A DNA stretch of 35,278 nt. Source: an uncultured Clostridia bacterium (GTDB taxonomy: Bacteria; Aerophobota; Aerophobia; Aerophobales; AE-B3A). The stretch covers positions 1-35,278 of the forward strand of contig CAZQMG010000002.1 of assembly GCA_964594375.1 (NCBI GenBank). The letters run 5' to 3'. How positions within the stretch are numbered: the stretch's first letter is position 1; the number at the start of each line of letters is the position of its first letter. A model generated the notes under the pieces. The model made no database searches. It was not told the origin of the DNA and saw nothing but the letters and a program-made list of their open reading frames with translations. This document shows, in pieces, positions 2,931 to 35,219 of the stretch. The position numbers and the translations under genes were made by a program.

Positions 2931-3138
2931 ATTGTTTATTTCCTATTGTGGTTATTTATGGGTAAAACGAAGCAGTCACTATTTTGCTTAACGTTCGTCC
3001 TGCGGGTACAAGAAGTTGCTGGAGCGAGGTACGAGCGGAAGTAATTTGGGTGAGCGACGATGGAGCGAGCCTTGTACTCGCTGTTATATGCAGTATTCGT
3101 GCTTCCTTTAGTTTTTCGATTGTTCTGCATCTATTGCT

Positions 3139-4519: not shown

Positions 4520-4556
4520 TACTCAAGATACGAGCAACCAGCAAGGGGCAACGAAG
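4520..4556 (-). repeat. Heptamer-phased trailer after tRNA-Pro (degenerate relative of the Ala/Leu trailer)
   Basis: Plus strand reads gatacga gcaacca gcaaggg gcaacga. It shares gctcgtatct with the trailers at 13803-13840 and 20054-20092. Confidence 0.6.
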
Positions 4557-10865: not shown

Positions 10866-10873
10866 TGAATTTA

Positions 10874-10934
10874 TTCCCTTTTTCCCCTCACCTCAATCCT
10901 CTCCCACAGGGGAGAGGGAAGGGAGAGGGGGTAA
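10874..10934. repeat. GGGGAGAGG hairpin element, copy 1
   Basis: ttccctttttcccctcacctcaatCCTCTCCCacaGGGGAGAGGgaagggagagggggtaa; about 90 percent identical to 32444-32497. Confidence 0.85.
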
Positions 10935-10935
10935 G

Positions 10936-11020
10936 TTCAACTATCTTGAACTATGTTTTTGAATTTCCTATGAATTTGGTTTTGAACTTGCTATGAGCAA
11001 TGAACTATGAACTATGAGCT
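10936..11020. repeat. Heptamer-phased array (ctatgaN family) abutting and including the ilvD stop codon
   Basis: ..ctatgag caatgaa ctatgaa ctatgag ctatttc.. in a constant 7-nt register. Confidence 0.75.
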
Positions 11021-12671
11021 ATTTCAATGTTGCCCCTTGACTAGCTGGTCCTACCAGCCGACTGTAACGGGCTAAATATCCTTCTTTTACGCCAGAGGGA
11101 GGCTTTTTCCAATTATCTCTTCTTTTCTTTAGTTCTTCTTCAGATAAGTTGATATTTAGAAGTCTTCCCGGGATATCAATAATAATCTCATCTCCATCTT
11201 GTAGAAGAGCAATGGGGCCTCCTACCTGTGCTTCAGGACAAATATGGCCAATACAAGGGCCTCTTGTTCCCCCGGAGAATCGTCCGTCGGTAATCAAGGC
11301 TACTGATTCGCTCAATCCCATTCCTGCAATAGTGGCGGTAGGGGAAAGCATCTCTCTCATCCCCGGACCTCCCTGAGGGCCCTCATAGCGAATGACAATA
11401 ACCTCACCTTCTTTTATTCTTCCTTCATAAATACTCTTAACTGCCTCTTCCTCGCTATCAAAAACACGAGCTTTTCCCCGGAAGTTTTTCATCTTTTCGC
11501 TTACGGCAGACTGCTTTACTACCGCTCCTTGAGGAGCAAGAGAACCGGTGAGTACAGCTATTCCCCCCTCTTGATTGTAAGGATTATCTAAACTCCTGAT
11601 TATTTCGTTGTCAACAATTTCTGCTTTCCGGGCGATTTCTTTTATAGGAATACCGGAAACTATGCAACGATCGGAGAGAAAATCAGTAAGTCGTTTTAAT
11701 AAAGCAGGGATTCCACCCGCCCATTCCAGGTCTTCCATAAAGTATTCCCCTCCCGGTCGCAGGCTAACTAGATGAGGGGTTTCTCTTCCTATTCTATCAA
11801 AATCGTCAAGAGATAGGCTGACTTTTGCTTCCTGAGCAATAGCCAGAAGATGGAGTACAGTATTACTGGAACCTCCTAGAGCCATATCCGCCCGAATAGC
11901 ATCTGTGAAAGCCTGGTTATTCATTATATCCCGGGGGAGAACATTTTCCTTAATCAAATCTATAATCCTCTCTCCGCTTTCATAGGCGAGCCTCTTTCTT
12001 TTGGCGGAGACAGCCAAAGCACAACCAGACCCAGTCAGGCTCATTCCCAGGACTTCCGTCAGGCAATCCATAGTGTTAGCTGTATATAAGCCCTGGCATG
12101 AACCGACTCCCGGACAAGCTTCTTCTTCTAAGGAATGAAGTTGTTCTTCATTTATTTCTCCCTTTTTGAGTCTGCCCACTGACTCATAGGAATCCCTCAC
12201 ATAAGAAAGTCTCTTTCCTCTCAATCTCCCCGAGAGCATAGGGCCAGCGGTAACAATAATGGTAGGGATATTTACCCGAGCGGCAGCCATAAGGGCACCA
12301 GGGGTTATTTTATCACAATTAGTAAGAAGAATAAGACCGTCAAAAGAGTGAGCTAGAGCTACGCTTTCAATAGAATCAGCTATCAGTTCTCGGGAAGGAA
12401 GGGAGTATCTCATTCCCATATGCCCCATAGCAATTCCATCACAAATAGCAGGAATGCCAAAGACAAAAGGATAACCCCCTCCTGACTCTACACCTCTTTC
12501 TATGAACCTCTCCAGGTCACGCATCTGAATATGGCCTGGAACTATGCTGCTGAAACTAGAAGCGATCCCTATAAAAGGCTTGCTTAAGGATTTTTTCGTT
12601 ACTCCTGTGGCGTAAAGTAATGCCCGATGAGGAGCTCGTTCGATTCCCTTTTTTATTTTATCGCTACGCAA
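11019..12671 (-). CDS. ilvD: Dihydroxy-acid dehydratase
   Basis: 550 aa; CDKITPG and [12 protein letters not shown] motifs; TTG start with GGAGGT 7 nt upstream. Confidence 0.92.
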
Positions 12672-12708
12672 TTTTTACCTCCAGGGTGAGATAAAAAACC
12701 CAAATATT

Positions 12709-12767
12709 GTAGAGGTCCGATTTATCGGACTTGTTAGCAAAGCGTGTTTCATAAATGAAACCTCTAC
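12709..12767 (-). promoter_or_regulatory. Three-way-junction / double-palindrome element in the ilvD leader
   Basis: Minus-strand RNA: GTAGAGG [GTTTCAT-TT-ATGAAAC] ACGCTTTGCTAACAA [GTCCGAT-AA-ATCGGAC] CCTCTAC, followed 10 nt later by GGGTTTTTT and the RBS. Confidence 0.45.
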
Positions 12768-12790
12768 TATATAGGATATCCCTCTTTTTT

Positions 12791-13091
12791 AGCGTATAGC
12801 GGGTAGCGTAGAGCGTATAGTAGAAAATGCAAAAACATAGGAGATAAGTTTATGGTTCATCGATAGAAACAACGATAACATGTTAATCAGTGAGCGAGTA
12901 GCACTCTCCTTTGGAGTGAGGGCAAAATTAACCATTTAACTAATTAACCAAGTTAACTAACGCGTTAGCAGGTCAATGAACAACGAACAATCAACTATGA
13001 ACAAAATGGTGAATTATGATTTTTTACTCCTAGGTTTAAGCTTTTCGCTTTGATGATTTATCCTATACGCTAAACGCTATCCGCTGCCGCT
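12791..13091. repeat. 301-nt spacer parsable as 43 heptamers in a single register, with inverted (AGCGNNT)4 terminal arrays
   Basis: agcgtat agcgggt agcgtag agcgtat ... accattt aactaat taaccaa gttaact ... tcaatga acaacga acaatca actatga ... tatacgc taaacgc tatccgc tgccgct. Confidence 0.8.
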
Positions 13092-13121
13092 ATGTTAAAA
13101 CATCCCTCAGTGTTTCTTCGC

Positions 13122-13628
13122 TCACAAAGCGTACCCGATACTAGCGCCAAGGCTAAGAGCAAATCCCCGGTCACCAGTATAATAACCTGCTCGTGCAAAG
13201 GGTTCTACACTCAGGTTTGGAGTAAAGAAGTATCTATAGCCAGCTTCTGCCCCAAAACCAAAAAAAGTTCCGGAGTCGAGCTTTAATCCAAGAAAGATGA
13301 TAGACCAATAATCCATACTTGCGAATCCTCCTATCCATAATCCTTCTGGAGCCATGGGTTTAAGGTATTTCTTTATCCCCAGTAATCCTCTATACGTTGT
13401 TACAATGCTTTCGCTACCCCGGCTAACTTCTCCGTGAACAGTTAGACTGGAACTTAATGTCCTTTCGTAGTCTGCACCGAAATAGGTTATTGTTTCACCT
13501 CCTGGTAACAACATGGAGAAGCCACCACTAAGGACAGTTTGGGGTCTTTGCCCTGCTAGTGCTGTACTCCCTATCATACCCAGTATTAGCATCATTACTA
13601 ATACCAGACAAATCCCTTTCTTCTTCAT
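13122..13628 (-). CDS. Small secreted beta-barrel (OMP_b-brl-like) protein
   Basis: 168 aa; signal peptide MKKKGICLVLVMMLILGMIGSTALA; alternating Gly/aromatic strands to the C-terminus (..SLGASIGYAL). Confidence 0.6.
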   Translation of the reverse strand: MKKKGICLVLVMMLILGMIGSTALAGQRPQTVLSGGFSMLLPGGETITYFGADYERTLSSSLTVHGEVSRGSESIVTTYRGLLGIKKYLKPMAPEGLWIGGFASMDYWSIIFLGLKLDSGTFFGFGAEAGYRYFFTPNLSVEPFARAGYYTGDRGFALSLGASIGYAL

Positions 13629-13802
13629 TTCTTTTCCCTCCTTTTTTAGTTCTGTAATTTTTCCCTTCGTCTATCCAATATTCTAATGTAAAATGCCTTA
13701 TCATTAAACTGTCGTTCCTCTTAAATCGCAACATTGTAAAATGTACCTGATACTTAACTCGGCTTCGGATCCCGTTTTATGCTTATAAGTCTTTGTTTTG
13801 CC

Positions 13803-13840
13803 TTTACGAGATACGAGCGACGAGCAACTAGCAACAAATT
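13803..13840 (-). repeat. Conserved heptamer-built trailer immediately 3' of tRNA-Ala
   Basis: Minus sense after CCA: aatttgttgctagttgctcgtcgctcgtatctcgtaa; 34/37 identical to the trailer after tRNA-Leu. Confidence 0.85.
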
Positions 13841-19965: not shown

Positions 19966-20053
19966 GCCGGGATGGCGGAAGTGGTAGACGCGCATGGTTG
20001 AGGGCCATGTGGACTTTTAGTCCTTGGGGGTTCAAGTCCCCCTCCCGGCACCA
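19966..20053 (+). tRNA. tRNA-Leu (anticodon GAG), long variable arm, CCA encoded
   Basis: Acceptor GCCGGGA/TCCCGGC, anticodon stem CATGG/CCATG with loop TTGAGGG, variable arm TGGACTTTTAGTCC, T arm GGGGG-TTCAAGT-CCCCC. Confidence 0.9.
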
Positions 20054-20092
20054 TAATTTGTTGCTAGTCGCTCGTTACTCGTATCTCGTAAG
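20054..20092 (+). repeat. Conserved heptamer-built trailer immediately 3' of tRNA-Leu
   Basis: taatttgttgctagtcgctcgttactcgtatctcgtaag; see 13803-13840. Confidence 0.85.
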
Positions 20093-30075: not shown

Positions 30076-30145
30076 ATGGTGAATCGTATCTCATGAATGG
30101 TGAATCGTTTTTCACTATACGCTATCCGCTAAACGCTATCTGCTA
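30076..30145. repeat. Ten-unit heptamer array inside the operon
   Basis: atggtga atcgtat ctcatga atggtga atcgttt ttcacta tacgcta tccgcta aacgcta tctgcta. It contains the stop and last codons of the 649-aa ORF. Confidence 0.8.
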
Positions 30146-32078
30146 TGAAAAGCGGTATTATCGCCAGGCCAATGAAAGCACAATTGAGCGACTGATAACT
30201 CTTTACTAAAGTTTGAGGATTTTCCTCAAACCAGGCCAATAATACAGGAGATTTTGCAGCTATATTTTTCAAAGGTCCTGCAAAATTCCACATCTGGTCA
30301 AGCACCTTTGTTTTTAATTCAATTCGGGGATCTTTGGATCTAACTTCTTCATTGTAGAGTGAAGAGAAGGAAGGTAAAGTCTCCCTCTCTTTTAAATTAA
30401 GCGTTAAATCAGCTTCATTGAAGGCAGGAAGTTCTTTCAAGAAAGAGCTATGCTCGCCATATAAAAAGAATAAATCCTGCAAAGGAAAAGAATTCAAGTT
30501 TTGTAGGCTCACCGTTATAATTTCTTTGCTTCTGGTGGTTTTTGTTATCAGCGAGAAAGGTAGGATAGTTTCCAGACGAAATAGATGAAAAGACCAGGCA
30601 GAGCTATCAGAAGACGAGGTCCAGCGAATCTTTCCCTCAGGGAGAAAGACTACTAAATCTTTGAAGAATTCTCGCTCCCTGGAAGGTGCTGAAAGAGCAG
30701 TTACAAAAGAGATCTTCTTATCAAATTCCAGTTCTACCGATTGGTAGTAAGGAGAAAAAAGGGTAAAATAGTTTTCCGTTTTGGCCAAAGAGCCTCCTTC
30801 TTTTTTATAAAAGATGCTTACCTGCCCTAAAAATGTGTTCTCTCTTCGCATCTTCATCCCCCAAAAAAGAGAAAAAATCAGAGCAGACAGAACTACAGTC
30901 AGACTCAGCCCGATCCTTAGTTTCCATCCCAATTTTCTTTTTTTCAGCCACCAACAGAAAAAACCAATGACCACAAGATAGACTAACAGAAAGAAGCCTA
31001 TTTCTCTTCGCCCCAGGTAAAACCTGCCCGGCCAAAGAATAGAGTGCTCAATAAGGGGATCCAAAATACCCCGGCTAAACATAGAAAAATTGGTTTCCTC
31101 CTCTAATATTTCCGCCCAGAAATAGGATTTTCCTGGCCAGTCCCTAAAAGGATGTTGGAAGAAATCAAGAGCTAAAAACAATATCTTCCCCGACCCCACT
31201 TTTAATTCTACCAGCAAGGGGATGCCCTCCTCCTTTATAAGAACGTCTCCCTTTTGCCACTGGCTATTCCACAGCTCAACTTTCTGGAAATCGGCAGTAA
31301 AGACTCCGTATCTACTCTGCAAGGAAGAAAATGAAGAATTCAGATAAATTTTCTCCAGGGATTCCAGCGGAAGTAAATGAGAGACTAGAGAAGATTTGAA
31401 TTTCCCGTATCCACCTTTTGCCGTAATAATCAGTCTTCCTCCTATAGAAAGCCATTCTTCTATAGCCTTTTCCTGTTCAGAAATTAATTCAAGTGACTCG
31501 ATGTCATCCAGGATTAATGCCTGAATTGCATCGTAACCTATCCAGTGGCTGGGTAGTTTGTTCGGATCGGTGTAAAGCACCTGCCTTATTCTTTTTATCT
31601 TTGCTTGGGCCAGAAAGTCAAATCCAGCGTGAGTCTTGTTAACTACCAGGATAAATCCCTTATCCATATAAAATGGCTGGATTGGAATCTCTTTTTTCAG
31701 CAGACTCTCTTTTCCGCTAATTAGCGAGACCTGCAAAGGATAGACATCCGTTTCCAGAAGTACATTGACTTGATAAAGCTTTCTCGAGGAAGAGGGAAGG
31801 AAAACAGGAATAGAATAGATGATTTCGGTAGGATCTTGTTCGAGAGGATTTCCTCTGGCCACTTTAATTAATAGAGTTCCCTCTAAGGAAGGACCTCGAT
31901 TTTCAAGAAAAACTCTTAGAGGTGTCCAGCTCCCGATTCTGTAAAATCCCTCGAAGCCTATCTCCACCTTCATTTGCAGAGGGGAAGTTGCCTTCGCCTC
32001 GAGAGCCATCAGTAGAAGAAAAATTCCCAGATCAGTAATGATCTTCCTGGTCCACTGCTTAGACGTCATATTTTCCAC
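30129..32078 (-). CDS. Hypothetical exported/membrane protein (first gene of the MoxR/VWA operon)
   Basis: 649 aa; signal/anchor ..LGIFLLLMALEAKA; YDAIQALILDD..WLSIGGRLIIT block suggesting a GATase1-like fold; two central TM helices. GTG start at 32078 or ATG at 32069. Confidence 0.55.
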   Translation of the reverse strand: MENMTSKQWTRKIITDLGIFLLLMALEAKATSPLQMKVEIGFEGFYRIGSWTPLRVFLENRGPSLEGTLLIKVARGNPLEQDPTEIIYSIPVFLPSSSRKLYQVNVLLETDVYPLQVSLISGKESLLKKEIPIQPFYMDKGFILVVNKTHAGFDFLAQAKIKRIRQVLYTDPNKLPSHWIGYDAIQALILDDIESLELISEQEKAIEEWLSIGGRLIITAKGGYGKFKSSLVSHLLPLESLEKIYLNSSFSSLQSRYGVFTADFQKVELWNSQWQKGDVLIKEEGIPLLVELKVGSGKILFLALDFFQHPFRDWPGKSYFWAEILEEETNFSMFSRGILDPLIEHSILWPGRFYLGRREIGFFLLVYLVVIGFFCWWLKKRKLGWKLRIGLSLTVVLSALIFSLFWGMKMRRENTFLGQVSIFYKKEGGSLAKTENYFTLFSPYYQSVELEFDKKISFVTALSAPSREREFFKDLVVFLPEGKIRWTSSSDSSAWSFHLFRLETILPFSLITKTTRSKEIITVSLQNLNSFPLQDLFFLYGEHSSFLKELPAFNEADLTLNLKERETLPSFSSLYNEEVRSKDPRIELKTKVLDQMWNFAGPLKNIAAKSPVLLAWFEENPQTLVKSYQSLNCAFIGLAIIPLFIADSV

Positions 32079-32175: not shown

Positions 32176-32341
32176 CCTCAGGACAATTTCTTCCGTCGCT
32201 GTTATTGGTTAATTTGTTAATTGGTTAAATGGTTAATTCCCCTCACCCTATGCCTCTCCCCCAGGGGAGAGGAGCACTACTCACCACTCACCAATTAACC
32301 ACTAACCATTACATAAGGCTTCTTCAGAAAATATCCTTCGG
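32176..32341. repeat. Dispersed intergenic element, copy B (conserved ends, 110-nt core of heptamer words plus hairpin copy 32239-32272)
   Basis: Ends match 100-126 and 325-353. Core: gttaatt tgttaat tggttaa atggtta .. CCTCTCCCC-ca-GGGGAGAGG .. tactcac cactcac caattaa ccactaa ccattac. Confidence 0.8.
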
Positions 32342-32380
32342 CAAGCATGTAAATTCTCATGCTTCAAGAGAAGGATTTTT

Positions 32381-32408: not shown

Positions 32409-32443
32409 GATTACTAACTAGATAGTATAGGAATTTCCTTTTT

Positions 32444-32497
32444 CCCCTCTTCTCAATCCTCTCCCCACGGGGGAGAGGGAAGGGAGAGGGGGGATAA
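32444..32497. repeat. GGGGAGAGG hairpin element, copy 3
   Basis: tttcctttttcccctcttctcaatCCTCTCCCCacgGGGGAGAGGgaagggagaggggggataa. Confidence 0.85.
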
Positions 32498-35084: not shown

Positions 35085-35156
35085 AATAGTTAAAAATTTA
35101 AAGCGTAAACCTAAAGCCATAATTCAAGATTTAAAACTTTTGAGTTTTAGGTTATG

Positions 35157-35219
35157 GTTTTTCGTTTTGCGCTTTTCGCTTTGCGTTTTTTCTATCCGCT
35201 ATCCGCTATCCGCTGTCTT
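35157..35219. repeat. Nine-unit heptamer array including a perfect (CTATCCG)x3
   Basis: gtttttc gttttgc gcttttc gctttgc gtttttt ctatccg ctatccg ctatccg ctgtctt. Confidence 0.85.

Follow-up and report, generated by a model that had tools for sequence, protein, structure and literature searches.

The stretch of DNA analyzed here (the window: 35,278 nt, positions 1 to 35,278 of contig CAZQMG010000002.1, assembly GCA_964594375.1) comes from an uncultured bacterium whose closest genome is the metagenome-assembled genome (MAG) Candidatus Aerophobetes bacterium Ae_b3a, its RNase Y being 97% identical. The window genes are ordinary chromosomal ones (RNase Y, NadD, RsfS, TrkAH, a BatA/VWA operon, ProB, Era, ribosomal protein S1, and three tRNAs), and our subject is a 301-nt block at 12791-13091 that a sequence-only reading had taken for 43 consecutive heptamers. 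The spacer housing this block is 450 nt long (12672-13121) and is flanked on one side by the start of ilvD (11019-12671, minus strand) and on the other by the stop codon of an open reading frame (ORF) of 168 aa (13122-13628, minus strand). This ORF had no Pfam match and no matching record in an exact-protein look-up, and the same look-up for the ilvD product returned a single 1.7-kb contig. Lineage comparisons were made with contig fragments of Candidatus Aerophobetes relatives, and three alleles of the block spacer were compared: those of the window, L362, and L002, the last being a contig of Ae_b3a. Between the window and L002, coding DNA is ∼95.7% identical and the spacers are restructured; the 168-aa ORF shares only ∼75% nucleotide identity with its L002 ortholog, as against ∼95.7% for the neighboring genes.

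Identity at lag 7 within the block was 0.442, compared with 0.264±0.026 in dinucleotide shuffles (z = +7.0), and all other lags in the block had z values of at most 2.7. Across all window spacers (3.8 kb) lag 7 reached z = +8.6, while coding DNA gave z = −0.7 at this lag and signal at multiples of 3 only, so the proposed period-7 peak above dinucleotide-shuffled controls is present and is absent from coding DNA. A sliding scan of lags 4-12 identified 16 array segments at lag 7, 15 of them in spacers or at gene ends, and at most 6 at every other lag. The heptamer runs named in the sequence-only reading lie at the positions it gave, and its word families do make up most of the longer spacers; it had placed recurrences at eight further sites, of which seven show a significant lag-7 signal (z 3.1-6.6) and one, 3022-3084, shows none (z = 0.0). 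The claim of an unbroken register fared differently. Arrays occur within the block only at 12788-12820, 12971-13005, and 13057-13086 (∼100 of 301 nt), the stretch 12926-12960 has a period of 8/17 by Tandem Repeats Finder (TRF; lag-8 z = 4.25, lag-7 z = −0.3), one arm unit is a hexamer, and outside the arrays the signal is equally weak at lag 7 (z = 2.65) and lag 8 (z = 2.48). Parsed algorithmically with TRF, the block yielded short local arrays only and no period-7 consensus spanning its whole length. A single 43-unit array as a reading of the block is thus ruled out by TRF, the sliding scan, and the lag statistics, and a register shared across different word families is without defined meaning.

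The units themselves have a common form, consisting of a fixed core of 4-5 nt and ∼2 free nucleotides, as in TAGCG+NN and T-NN-CT-N-G. The dinucleotide with the strongest lag-7 signal is CG (21 pairs vs 3.5±2.1 at other lags). Among 14 AGCG-family units, 10 of 12 differences are confined to two positions (P about 0.0025), and in the units trailing the tRNAs T1, C4, T5, and G7 are constant.

At either end of the block lies a copy of a module, here called M, whose layout is three to four AGCGNNT units followed by in-register A-rich units that keep one CG per 7 nt. M occurs at four window loci, 12791(+), 13091(−), 30147(−), and 35216(−), as well as in relatives, and its copies align mutually. The first copy (12791..12854, plus strand) forms the left hairpin arm, with the head AGCGTAT AGCGGGT AGCGTAG AGCGTAT (12791-12818), then AGTAGAA AATGCAA AAAC and a short tail; 28 nt of its arm are identical in L002 and L362. 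The second copy is inverted (13003..13094, minus strand) and is likewise found, conserved, in L362 and L002. Its head, AGCGGC AGCGGAT AGCGTTT AGCGTAT (13091-13063), starts 30 nt past the stop codon of the 168-aa ORF, has TRF period 7 at 13063-13085, and includes the hexamer already mentioned (AGCGGC, minus strand) as the final right-arm unit; it is followed by AGGATAAATCATCAAAGCGAAAAGC..., and the copy ends with a remnant of cassette X (ATAATTCA). Elsewhere in the window, a single M head at 30100..30147 (minus strand) reads AGCAGAT AGCGTTT AGCGGAT AGCGTAT plus an A-rich unit, and a copy joined to cassette X at 35121..35216 (minus strand) runs (AGCGGAT)3, AGAAAAA ACGCAAA GCGAAAA GCGCAAA ACGAAAA, then ...AAAACTCAAAAGTTTTAAATCTTGAATT, and aligns with the ilvD-locus arm of L362.

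The inverted terminal arrays proposed for the block are real: 12798-12826 and 13057-13085 are 83% complementary over 29 nt, and 12788-12799 and 13063-13074 are 100% complementary over 12 nt. The accompanying suggestion of ends resembling terminal inverted repeats, or of a long-range stem, also holds up, as folding predictions for either strand bring the M arms together (z −3.8 and −6.0) and the arms are kept in all three alleles. On the gene strand, the common 5′ arm is AGCGGAT AGCGTTT AGCGTAT AGGATAAA.. and the common 3′ arm is TATACG CTCTACG CTACCCG CTATACGC, while the interior between them measures ∼245 nt in the window, ∼125 nt in L362, and ∼60 nt in L002. The predicted fold of the L362 allele is an almost continuous 171-nt rod (z −6.35); that of L002 is weaker (z −2.2 and −3.6).

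In the window, the apical region between the two M copies is occupied by a 148-nt element, N (12855..13002, minus strand), which the orthologous spacers of L362 and L002 lack. N has terminal inverted repeats, its ends being GTTCATAG and CGATGAAC, and also an inverted pair, and its interior contains GTTCRTT heptamers, TGACCTGCTAACGCGTTAG, TTAAYTGG octamers, a small hairpin, and an ACTC-rich stretch. The array at 12973..13005 (plus strand; TCAATGA ACAACGA ACAATCA ACTATGA ACAAA; TRF period 14, 2.2 copies) is a lag-7 segment of direct repeats and is the plus-strand reading of the end of N that bears the GTTCRTT units. The array of octamers and 17-mers at 12926..12960 (plus strand; AATTAACC) has TRF periods of 8 and 17 rather than 7, and is 88.6% identical to an inverted stretch at 32205-32238. 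That stretch belongs to a partial N-like copy at 32200..32312 (plus strand), linked to N by BLAST, in which TTAAYTGG octamers and a hairpin are followed by CACTACTCACC and AATTAACC-type units (TRF periods 8, 16, and 7).

Full copies of N are thus found at two loci, the second being upstream of era in L380, L382, and L384 (84-91% identical to the window N), and partial copies at at least five, one at 32205-32249 and others in several relatives. The era locus is polymorphic: the window and seven relatives (L381, L383, L385, L387, L388, L389, and L390) have the 31-nt cassette X instead of N, L382 and L384 carry N in place of X, and L380 carries N without X or M. The arrangement is the opposite at ilvD, where N is in the window and X in L362; L002 carries neither of them there. 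New flanking sequence in L394 (9.5 kb) contains an N-like copy, an M tail joined to X where a stop codon lies, and, past the S18 gene, two trailer-type arrays inverted relative to each other. The alleles of the block spacer share no conserved ORF, and N had no matches in viral contigs. The order M(+), N, M(−) leads us to describe the block as a set of nested, dispersed, polymorphic modules. Like miniature inverted-repeat transposable elements (MITEs), these modules are small, noncoding, and multicopy, with terminal inverted repeats and with presence or absence at orthologous sites. A clean insertion with a target-site duplication was looked for in the 200-nt difference from L002 and was not found; the difference is a replacement.

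Strains also differ by whole units: L362 has +14 nt beside the 3′ arm, L382 has +7 nt (one additional ATGGTAT), and the order of tRNA trailer units differs between relatives, those of tRNA-Leu being reshuffled in L002. The behavior of the arrays fits whole-unit slippage on arrays with a constrained core, and the constraint may stem from pairing, from a factor that binds the arrays, or from their being copied off a master element. Because the arrays vary between strains, they are possible typing markers.

The block is therefore modular as well as periodic, with M and N dispersed to several spacers, and with arms that are conserved around a variable interior. We consider it probable (roughly 0.6) that it is a nested composite of two families of small, noncoding, dispersed palindromic spacer repeats of Candidatus Aerophobetes. 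The two M copies, inverted and head-out, would form the arms of a long hairpin or cruciform that starts 30 nt beyond the point where the upstream 168-aa ORF stops, and N, which has inverted ends of its own and contains arrays of 7 and 8 nt, would occupy the apex. The 7-nt rhythm would arise as whole units are gained, lost, and reordered within tandem arrays, a pattern that replication slippage or unequal exchange could produce, the CG-containing core of 4-5 nt staying fixed while ∼2 positions per unit vary. M and N would have spread by MITE-like, REPIN-like, or recombinational copying. When transcribed, the modules probably form 3′-end hairpins, and by analogy with REP/BIME sequences the paired arms, transcribed from the gene strand, could serve as a 3′-end stem that delimits or stabilizes the upstream transcript.

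Repetitive extragenic palindromes (REP), their mosaic and doublet forms (BIME and REPIN), and the BOX, ERIC, and Correia elements are small noncoding, imperfect spacer palindromes that commonly lie just past stop codons. REP/BIME/REPIN sequences and mosaic MITE-like repeats occur singly or as inverted doublets, form module mosaics with variable unit number, and can have other elements nested in their loops. The block resembles these families in being an inverted doublet with a predicted hairpin in a spacer near a gene 3′ end, and the resemblance extends to small noncoding palindromes near stops, modular mosaics, and nested elements. It differs from them in that its arms are tandem heptamer arrays rather than one palindromic unit and in that no target-site duplication was recognizable in the alleles compared. 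Modular intergenic repeats of this sort are broadly known, if poorly understood, and the one described here belongs to an uncultured Aerophobetes bacterium; a literature search on repeats in Aerophobetes found nothing relevant. The anatomy of M, N, cassette X, and the trailer arrays gives a concrete picture of spacers in an uncultured candidate phylum.

The short tandemly repeated repetitive (STRR) sequences of heterocystous cyanobacteria have the consensus units CCCCAGT, TTGGTCA, and CAACAGT. Because the units here are AGCGNNT, TTGCTCG, and others, and the nearest genome is Candidatus Aerophobetes, these arrays are not STRR sequences in the strict sense. Nor are STRR sequences the only precedent, as had been supposed: heptamer repeats have been described in Xanthomonas, Nostoc, Beggiatoaceae, and Geobacter. 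The GGGAATC-type repeats (GGGAATC/GGGGAYT) of Xanthomonas and Nostoc are intergenic, lie near ORF ends, are sometimes inverted, vary between relatives, and have no known function, and marine Beggiatoaceae carry TAACTGA repeats (PMC4692102, PMC4679880). Geobacter metallireducens has multicopy sites of 4-5 tandem hepta- or octanucleotides (GGACCGG ×4 at 49 loci, GTTGCTYN ×4, and MTYCTGA ×5), mostly as opposite-strand pairs and some inside genes, which its authors read as regulator-binding sites or RNA elements (PMC2700814). Our arrays are like these sites in having 4-5 units of 7-8 nt, multiple copies, and opposite-strand pairs, and GTTGCTYN, set beside our TTGCTNG trailer family by published description only, resembles it (PMC2700814). 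To long heptanucleotide simple sequence repeats (SSRs) the likeness lies in tandem 7-nt units that are strongly noncoding, often near ORF ends, variable between close relatives, rare between divergent genes, and sometimes in inverted pairs (PMC4692102, PMC4679880). The arrays here do consist of 7-nt head-to-tail units above chance, with a noncoding bias and whole-unit strain differences. They differ in being degenerate and only 3-5 units long, with several word families in which the core is fixed and the spacer free; in their words (AGCGNNT, TTGCTCG/TATCTCG, AAAANCG, and GTTCATA), which are unlike the published ones; and in sitting within larger dispersed modules of an uncultured Aerophobetes host.

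Such SSRs could in principle be all there is, with slippage biased to 7-nt units in unconstrained spacers and with inverted pairs and shared words as by-products, involving neither dispersal nor function. Heptanucleotide repeats reportedly form the commonest long SSR class in most prokaryote genomes, for which polymerase slippage has been proposed (Mrazek 2007, as that work is described in PMC4679880 and PMC4692102). The strain differences of +7 and +14 nt, the rapid turnover of units while flanking genes remain ∼96% identical, and the sharing of one period by many unrelated word families would all be expected of such a process. It does not readily yield the complex nonperiodic parts of N (TGACCTGCTAACNCGTTAG and its hairpin) that recur at separate loci with 84-91% identity, the ordered M layout repeated at four window loci, the concentration of variation in 2 of 7 positions, or the retention of the arms while the interior turns over. 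We thus regard purely neutral SSRs as an unlikely explanation of the block.

Several observations weigh against a nested palindromic composite. The single M heads in the window, and likewise its tRNA trailers, have no inverted partner. Neither a target-site duplication nor a clean empty site was found for N or M, the flanks differ between alleles, and the exchange of X and N is accompanied by further sequence change. In the L002 allele, two G-to-C changes in the 5′ arm break pairs and the 3′ arm does not compensate, so covariation evidence for selected pairing is absent. The gene strand has no U-tract after the hairpin, an A-run being there instead, and a scan of 12500-13300 for terminator-like or promoter-like (sigma-70) sites was empty. 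Finally, although arrays start at, or at most 30 nt from, stop codons or tRNA 3′ ends, the N-like copy at 32200-32312 lies between divergent genes, and the 3′-end rule is thus not absolute.

Some of these same observations bear on whether the structure simply serves the upstream 168-aa ORF as a Rho-independent terminator of the canonical type, or is a small RNA gene associated with it. A long and stable stem is predicted from 30 nt past its stop codon, and analogous hairpins elsewhere are mostly in tandem or convergent gene contexts. With no U-tract after the 3′ arm, no terminator- or promoter-like site in the scanned interval, a 245-nt loop (60-245 nt over the alleles) far beyond terminator geometry, and an interior that is not conserved between strains, we consider this very improbable. 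An intrinsic terminator and a sigma-70 promoter in 12500-13300 are accordingly both rejected by the scan. Membership of the block in a known structured RNA family is rejected as well: at gathering score the only Rfam matches were two of the three window tRNAs, and with E values up to 5 there was one chance-level match (E = 0.18), outside the block.

Arrays also abut genes away from the block. The array at the 3′ end of ilvD (10986..11027, minus strand; CTCATAG TTCATAG TTCATTG CTCATAG; TRF period 7, 4.6 copies) overlaps the gene, provides its TAG stop codon (11019-11027), and shares its word family with the N ends. Similarly, the stop codon of a 649-aa ORF is one of the TAGs in the single M head (30129-30147). 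In other strains (L380-L386) a different heptamer array follows this ORF, whose called product is 649, 646, or 643 aa; the arrays may thus reshape the C terminus of its product, as far as a comparison of called ORFs that left start codons aside would indicate. Arrays at gene ends are therefore of consequence in supplying stop codons and in making the called length of one adjacent ORF strain-dependent.

All three window tRNAs are followed by arrays of one trailer family, which is also found on tRNA-Ala and tRNA-Leu of L002, L362, and L365, and which begins 0-7 nt past the tRNA 3′ ends. These are TTGCTAG TTGCTCG TCGCTCG TATCTCG after tRNA-Ala (13803..13840, minus strand), TTGCTAG TCGCTCG TTACTCG TATCTCG after tRNA-Leu (20054..20092, plus strand), and TTGCCCC TTGCTGG TTGCTCG TATCTTG after tRNA-Pro (4520..4556, minus strand; lag-7 z = 3.1). 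The arrays appear to act as assembly breakpoints: among nine independent short-read contigs with identical RsfS, five (L363, L366, L367, L369, and L370) end exactly at ...GCTCGTATCTCGT in the tRNA-Ala trailer, and a sixth, L364, ends a few bases short of it. This coincidence with the ends of short-read assemblies makes the arrays relevant to assembly.

Two relatives have an extra segment of ∼190-290 nt after tRNA-Ala (L002 6284-6700 and L362 2854-3060), which is missing from the orthologous window region 13629-13840; at its end the 3′ end of the tRNA is repeated (..TCCCCCTGCCTCCACCA), followed by another heptamer trailer. It could be the remnant of an element integrated at tRNA-Ala. A transfer-messenger RNA in this segment was considered and discarded, ARAGORN having called neither tRNA nor tmRNA there in L002 or L362.

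The arrays are not confined to this lineage. Their density per 100 kb was 28 in the window, 47 in relatives, and 2.6 (median 0) in 79 other genomes, so the window is ∼11 times as dense as the latter, the richest of which were Omnitrophota MAGs. The idea of a lineage-specific system generating heptamers thus stands in part, in that strains do differ by whole units; the restriction to one lineage does not, as arrays are also found in Omnitrophota MAGs and in viral and metagenome contigs. In one Candidatus Omnitrophota MAG (L033, 2082-2161) a hairpin of the form (TTCATAG)4-TAC-(CCATGAA)4 begins at the RNase Y stop codon, and its words belong to the family of the ilvD 3′ array and the N ends.

Three AGCGNNT units in tandem were found in at least 120 viral-contig stretches, as against 40 for a composition-matched control. 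Among the matches listed, 37 of 135 AGCG arrays have an inverted array at most 300 nt downstream (median gap 37 nt) and 2 have one upstream, while the control heptamer had an inverted partner in none of 40. By rough ORF calls, and again among the matches listed, 10 of 30 AGCG-type viral hairpins had convergent genes as neighbors, 11 had tandem genes, and 1 had divergent genes, with a median stop-to-hairpin distance of 17 nt. At least 120 metagenome stretches, with a GC content of 31-73%, contain CTCGTAT arrays, many of which have an inverted partner. GC-rich viral contigs (L085, L091, L099, L101, L104, L110, L133, L147, L160, and others) carry (TAGCGAA/TAGCGAG)n - short loop - (TTCGCTA/CTCGCTA)n hairpins near stop codons, almost invariably with the purine-rich arm first and frequently with a small GC palindrome of its own as the loop; we found no description of this hairpin class.

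The orientation bias of the inverted pairs, together with units of fixed core and free spacer, leaves room for a factor-binding reading, in which the arrays are multisite platforms for an orientation-specific protein stepping 7 nt, either a transposase or recombinase on subterminal repeats or a multimeric RNA-binding protein on 3′ untranslated regions and trailers. Besides the form of the units, the recurrence of CG every 7 nt and the presence of one trailer family on several tRNAs in the window and its relatives would agree with such a protein, and the single head-out polarity seen among the listed AGCG matches is not an obvious need of a hairpin alone. We nonetheless hold this to be improbable. 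We identified no candidate protein, the period is common to several word families that are unrelated to one another, the polarity bias is weaker for CTCGTAT arrays (8 vs 3 among the matches listed), and polarity is reversed for the TTCATAG and TTGCTCG pairs in L033 and L394. The association with tRNAs does not extend to CTCGTAT in general either, as only 1 of the 120 metagenome arrays listed follows a tRNA. That head-out inverted arrays of (N5-CG) type are, more specifically, recognition arrays for one such factor seems to us a rather doubtful proposition; if it were true, they would constitute a new class of palindromic element, mobile or regulatory, that spans phyla, and would give a mechanistic reason for the dominance of 7 nt among prokaryotic long SSRs. 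The whole-unit insertions and deletions in natural strains, the fixed CG core with free spacer, and the orientation bias of inverted pairs make a tractable dataset for the question of why the unit is 7.

Three further ideas on the period and polarity were set aside. The reversal of polarity in L033 and L394 speaks against an A-rich 5′ arm and U-rich 3′ arm following the logic of a bidirectional terminator. A three-frame stop module, with one TAG per 7 nt, suits the AGCG and CATAG families, given that the stops of ilvD and of the 649-aa ORF are array TAGs, but (CTCGTAT)n is stop-free on both strands and yet very abundant. HutP- or TRAP-like binding of UAG-N4 does not fit the trailer and A-rich families.

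Other features were noted in the window. Immediately before the ilvD ribosome-binding site lies a separate 69-nt hairpin (12704-12772), whose 22-nt arms are 82% complementary (GTAGAGG...CCTCTAC) with two inner stems between them; the window and L362 have this hairpin, and in L002 unrelated sequence takes its place. Its sole Rfam match was to a miRNA model, at chance level (E = 0.18). ARAGORN calls a tRNA-Leu(GAG) at 19966-20053, which the Rfam tRNA model at gathering score does not include. A 60-nt G/A-rich repeat with a CCTCTCCC/GGGAGAGG hairpin occurs at 10873-10931 and 32433-32492 (92% identical), each time beside a gene start; a promoter or ribosome-binding role is unlikely because the two adjacent genes lie on opposite strands and its orientation relative to them is therefore opposite. 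Finally, GCCTCAGGACAATTTCTTCC and its approximate reverse complement form a pair resembling terminal inverted repeats in two copies (100-126 / 325-369 and 32176-32202 / 32313-32356), which flank unlike interiors of ∼200 nt and ∼110 nt, and this looks like a further MITE-like family.

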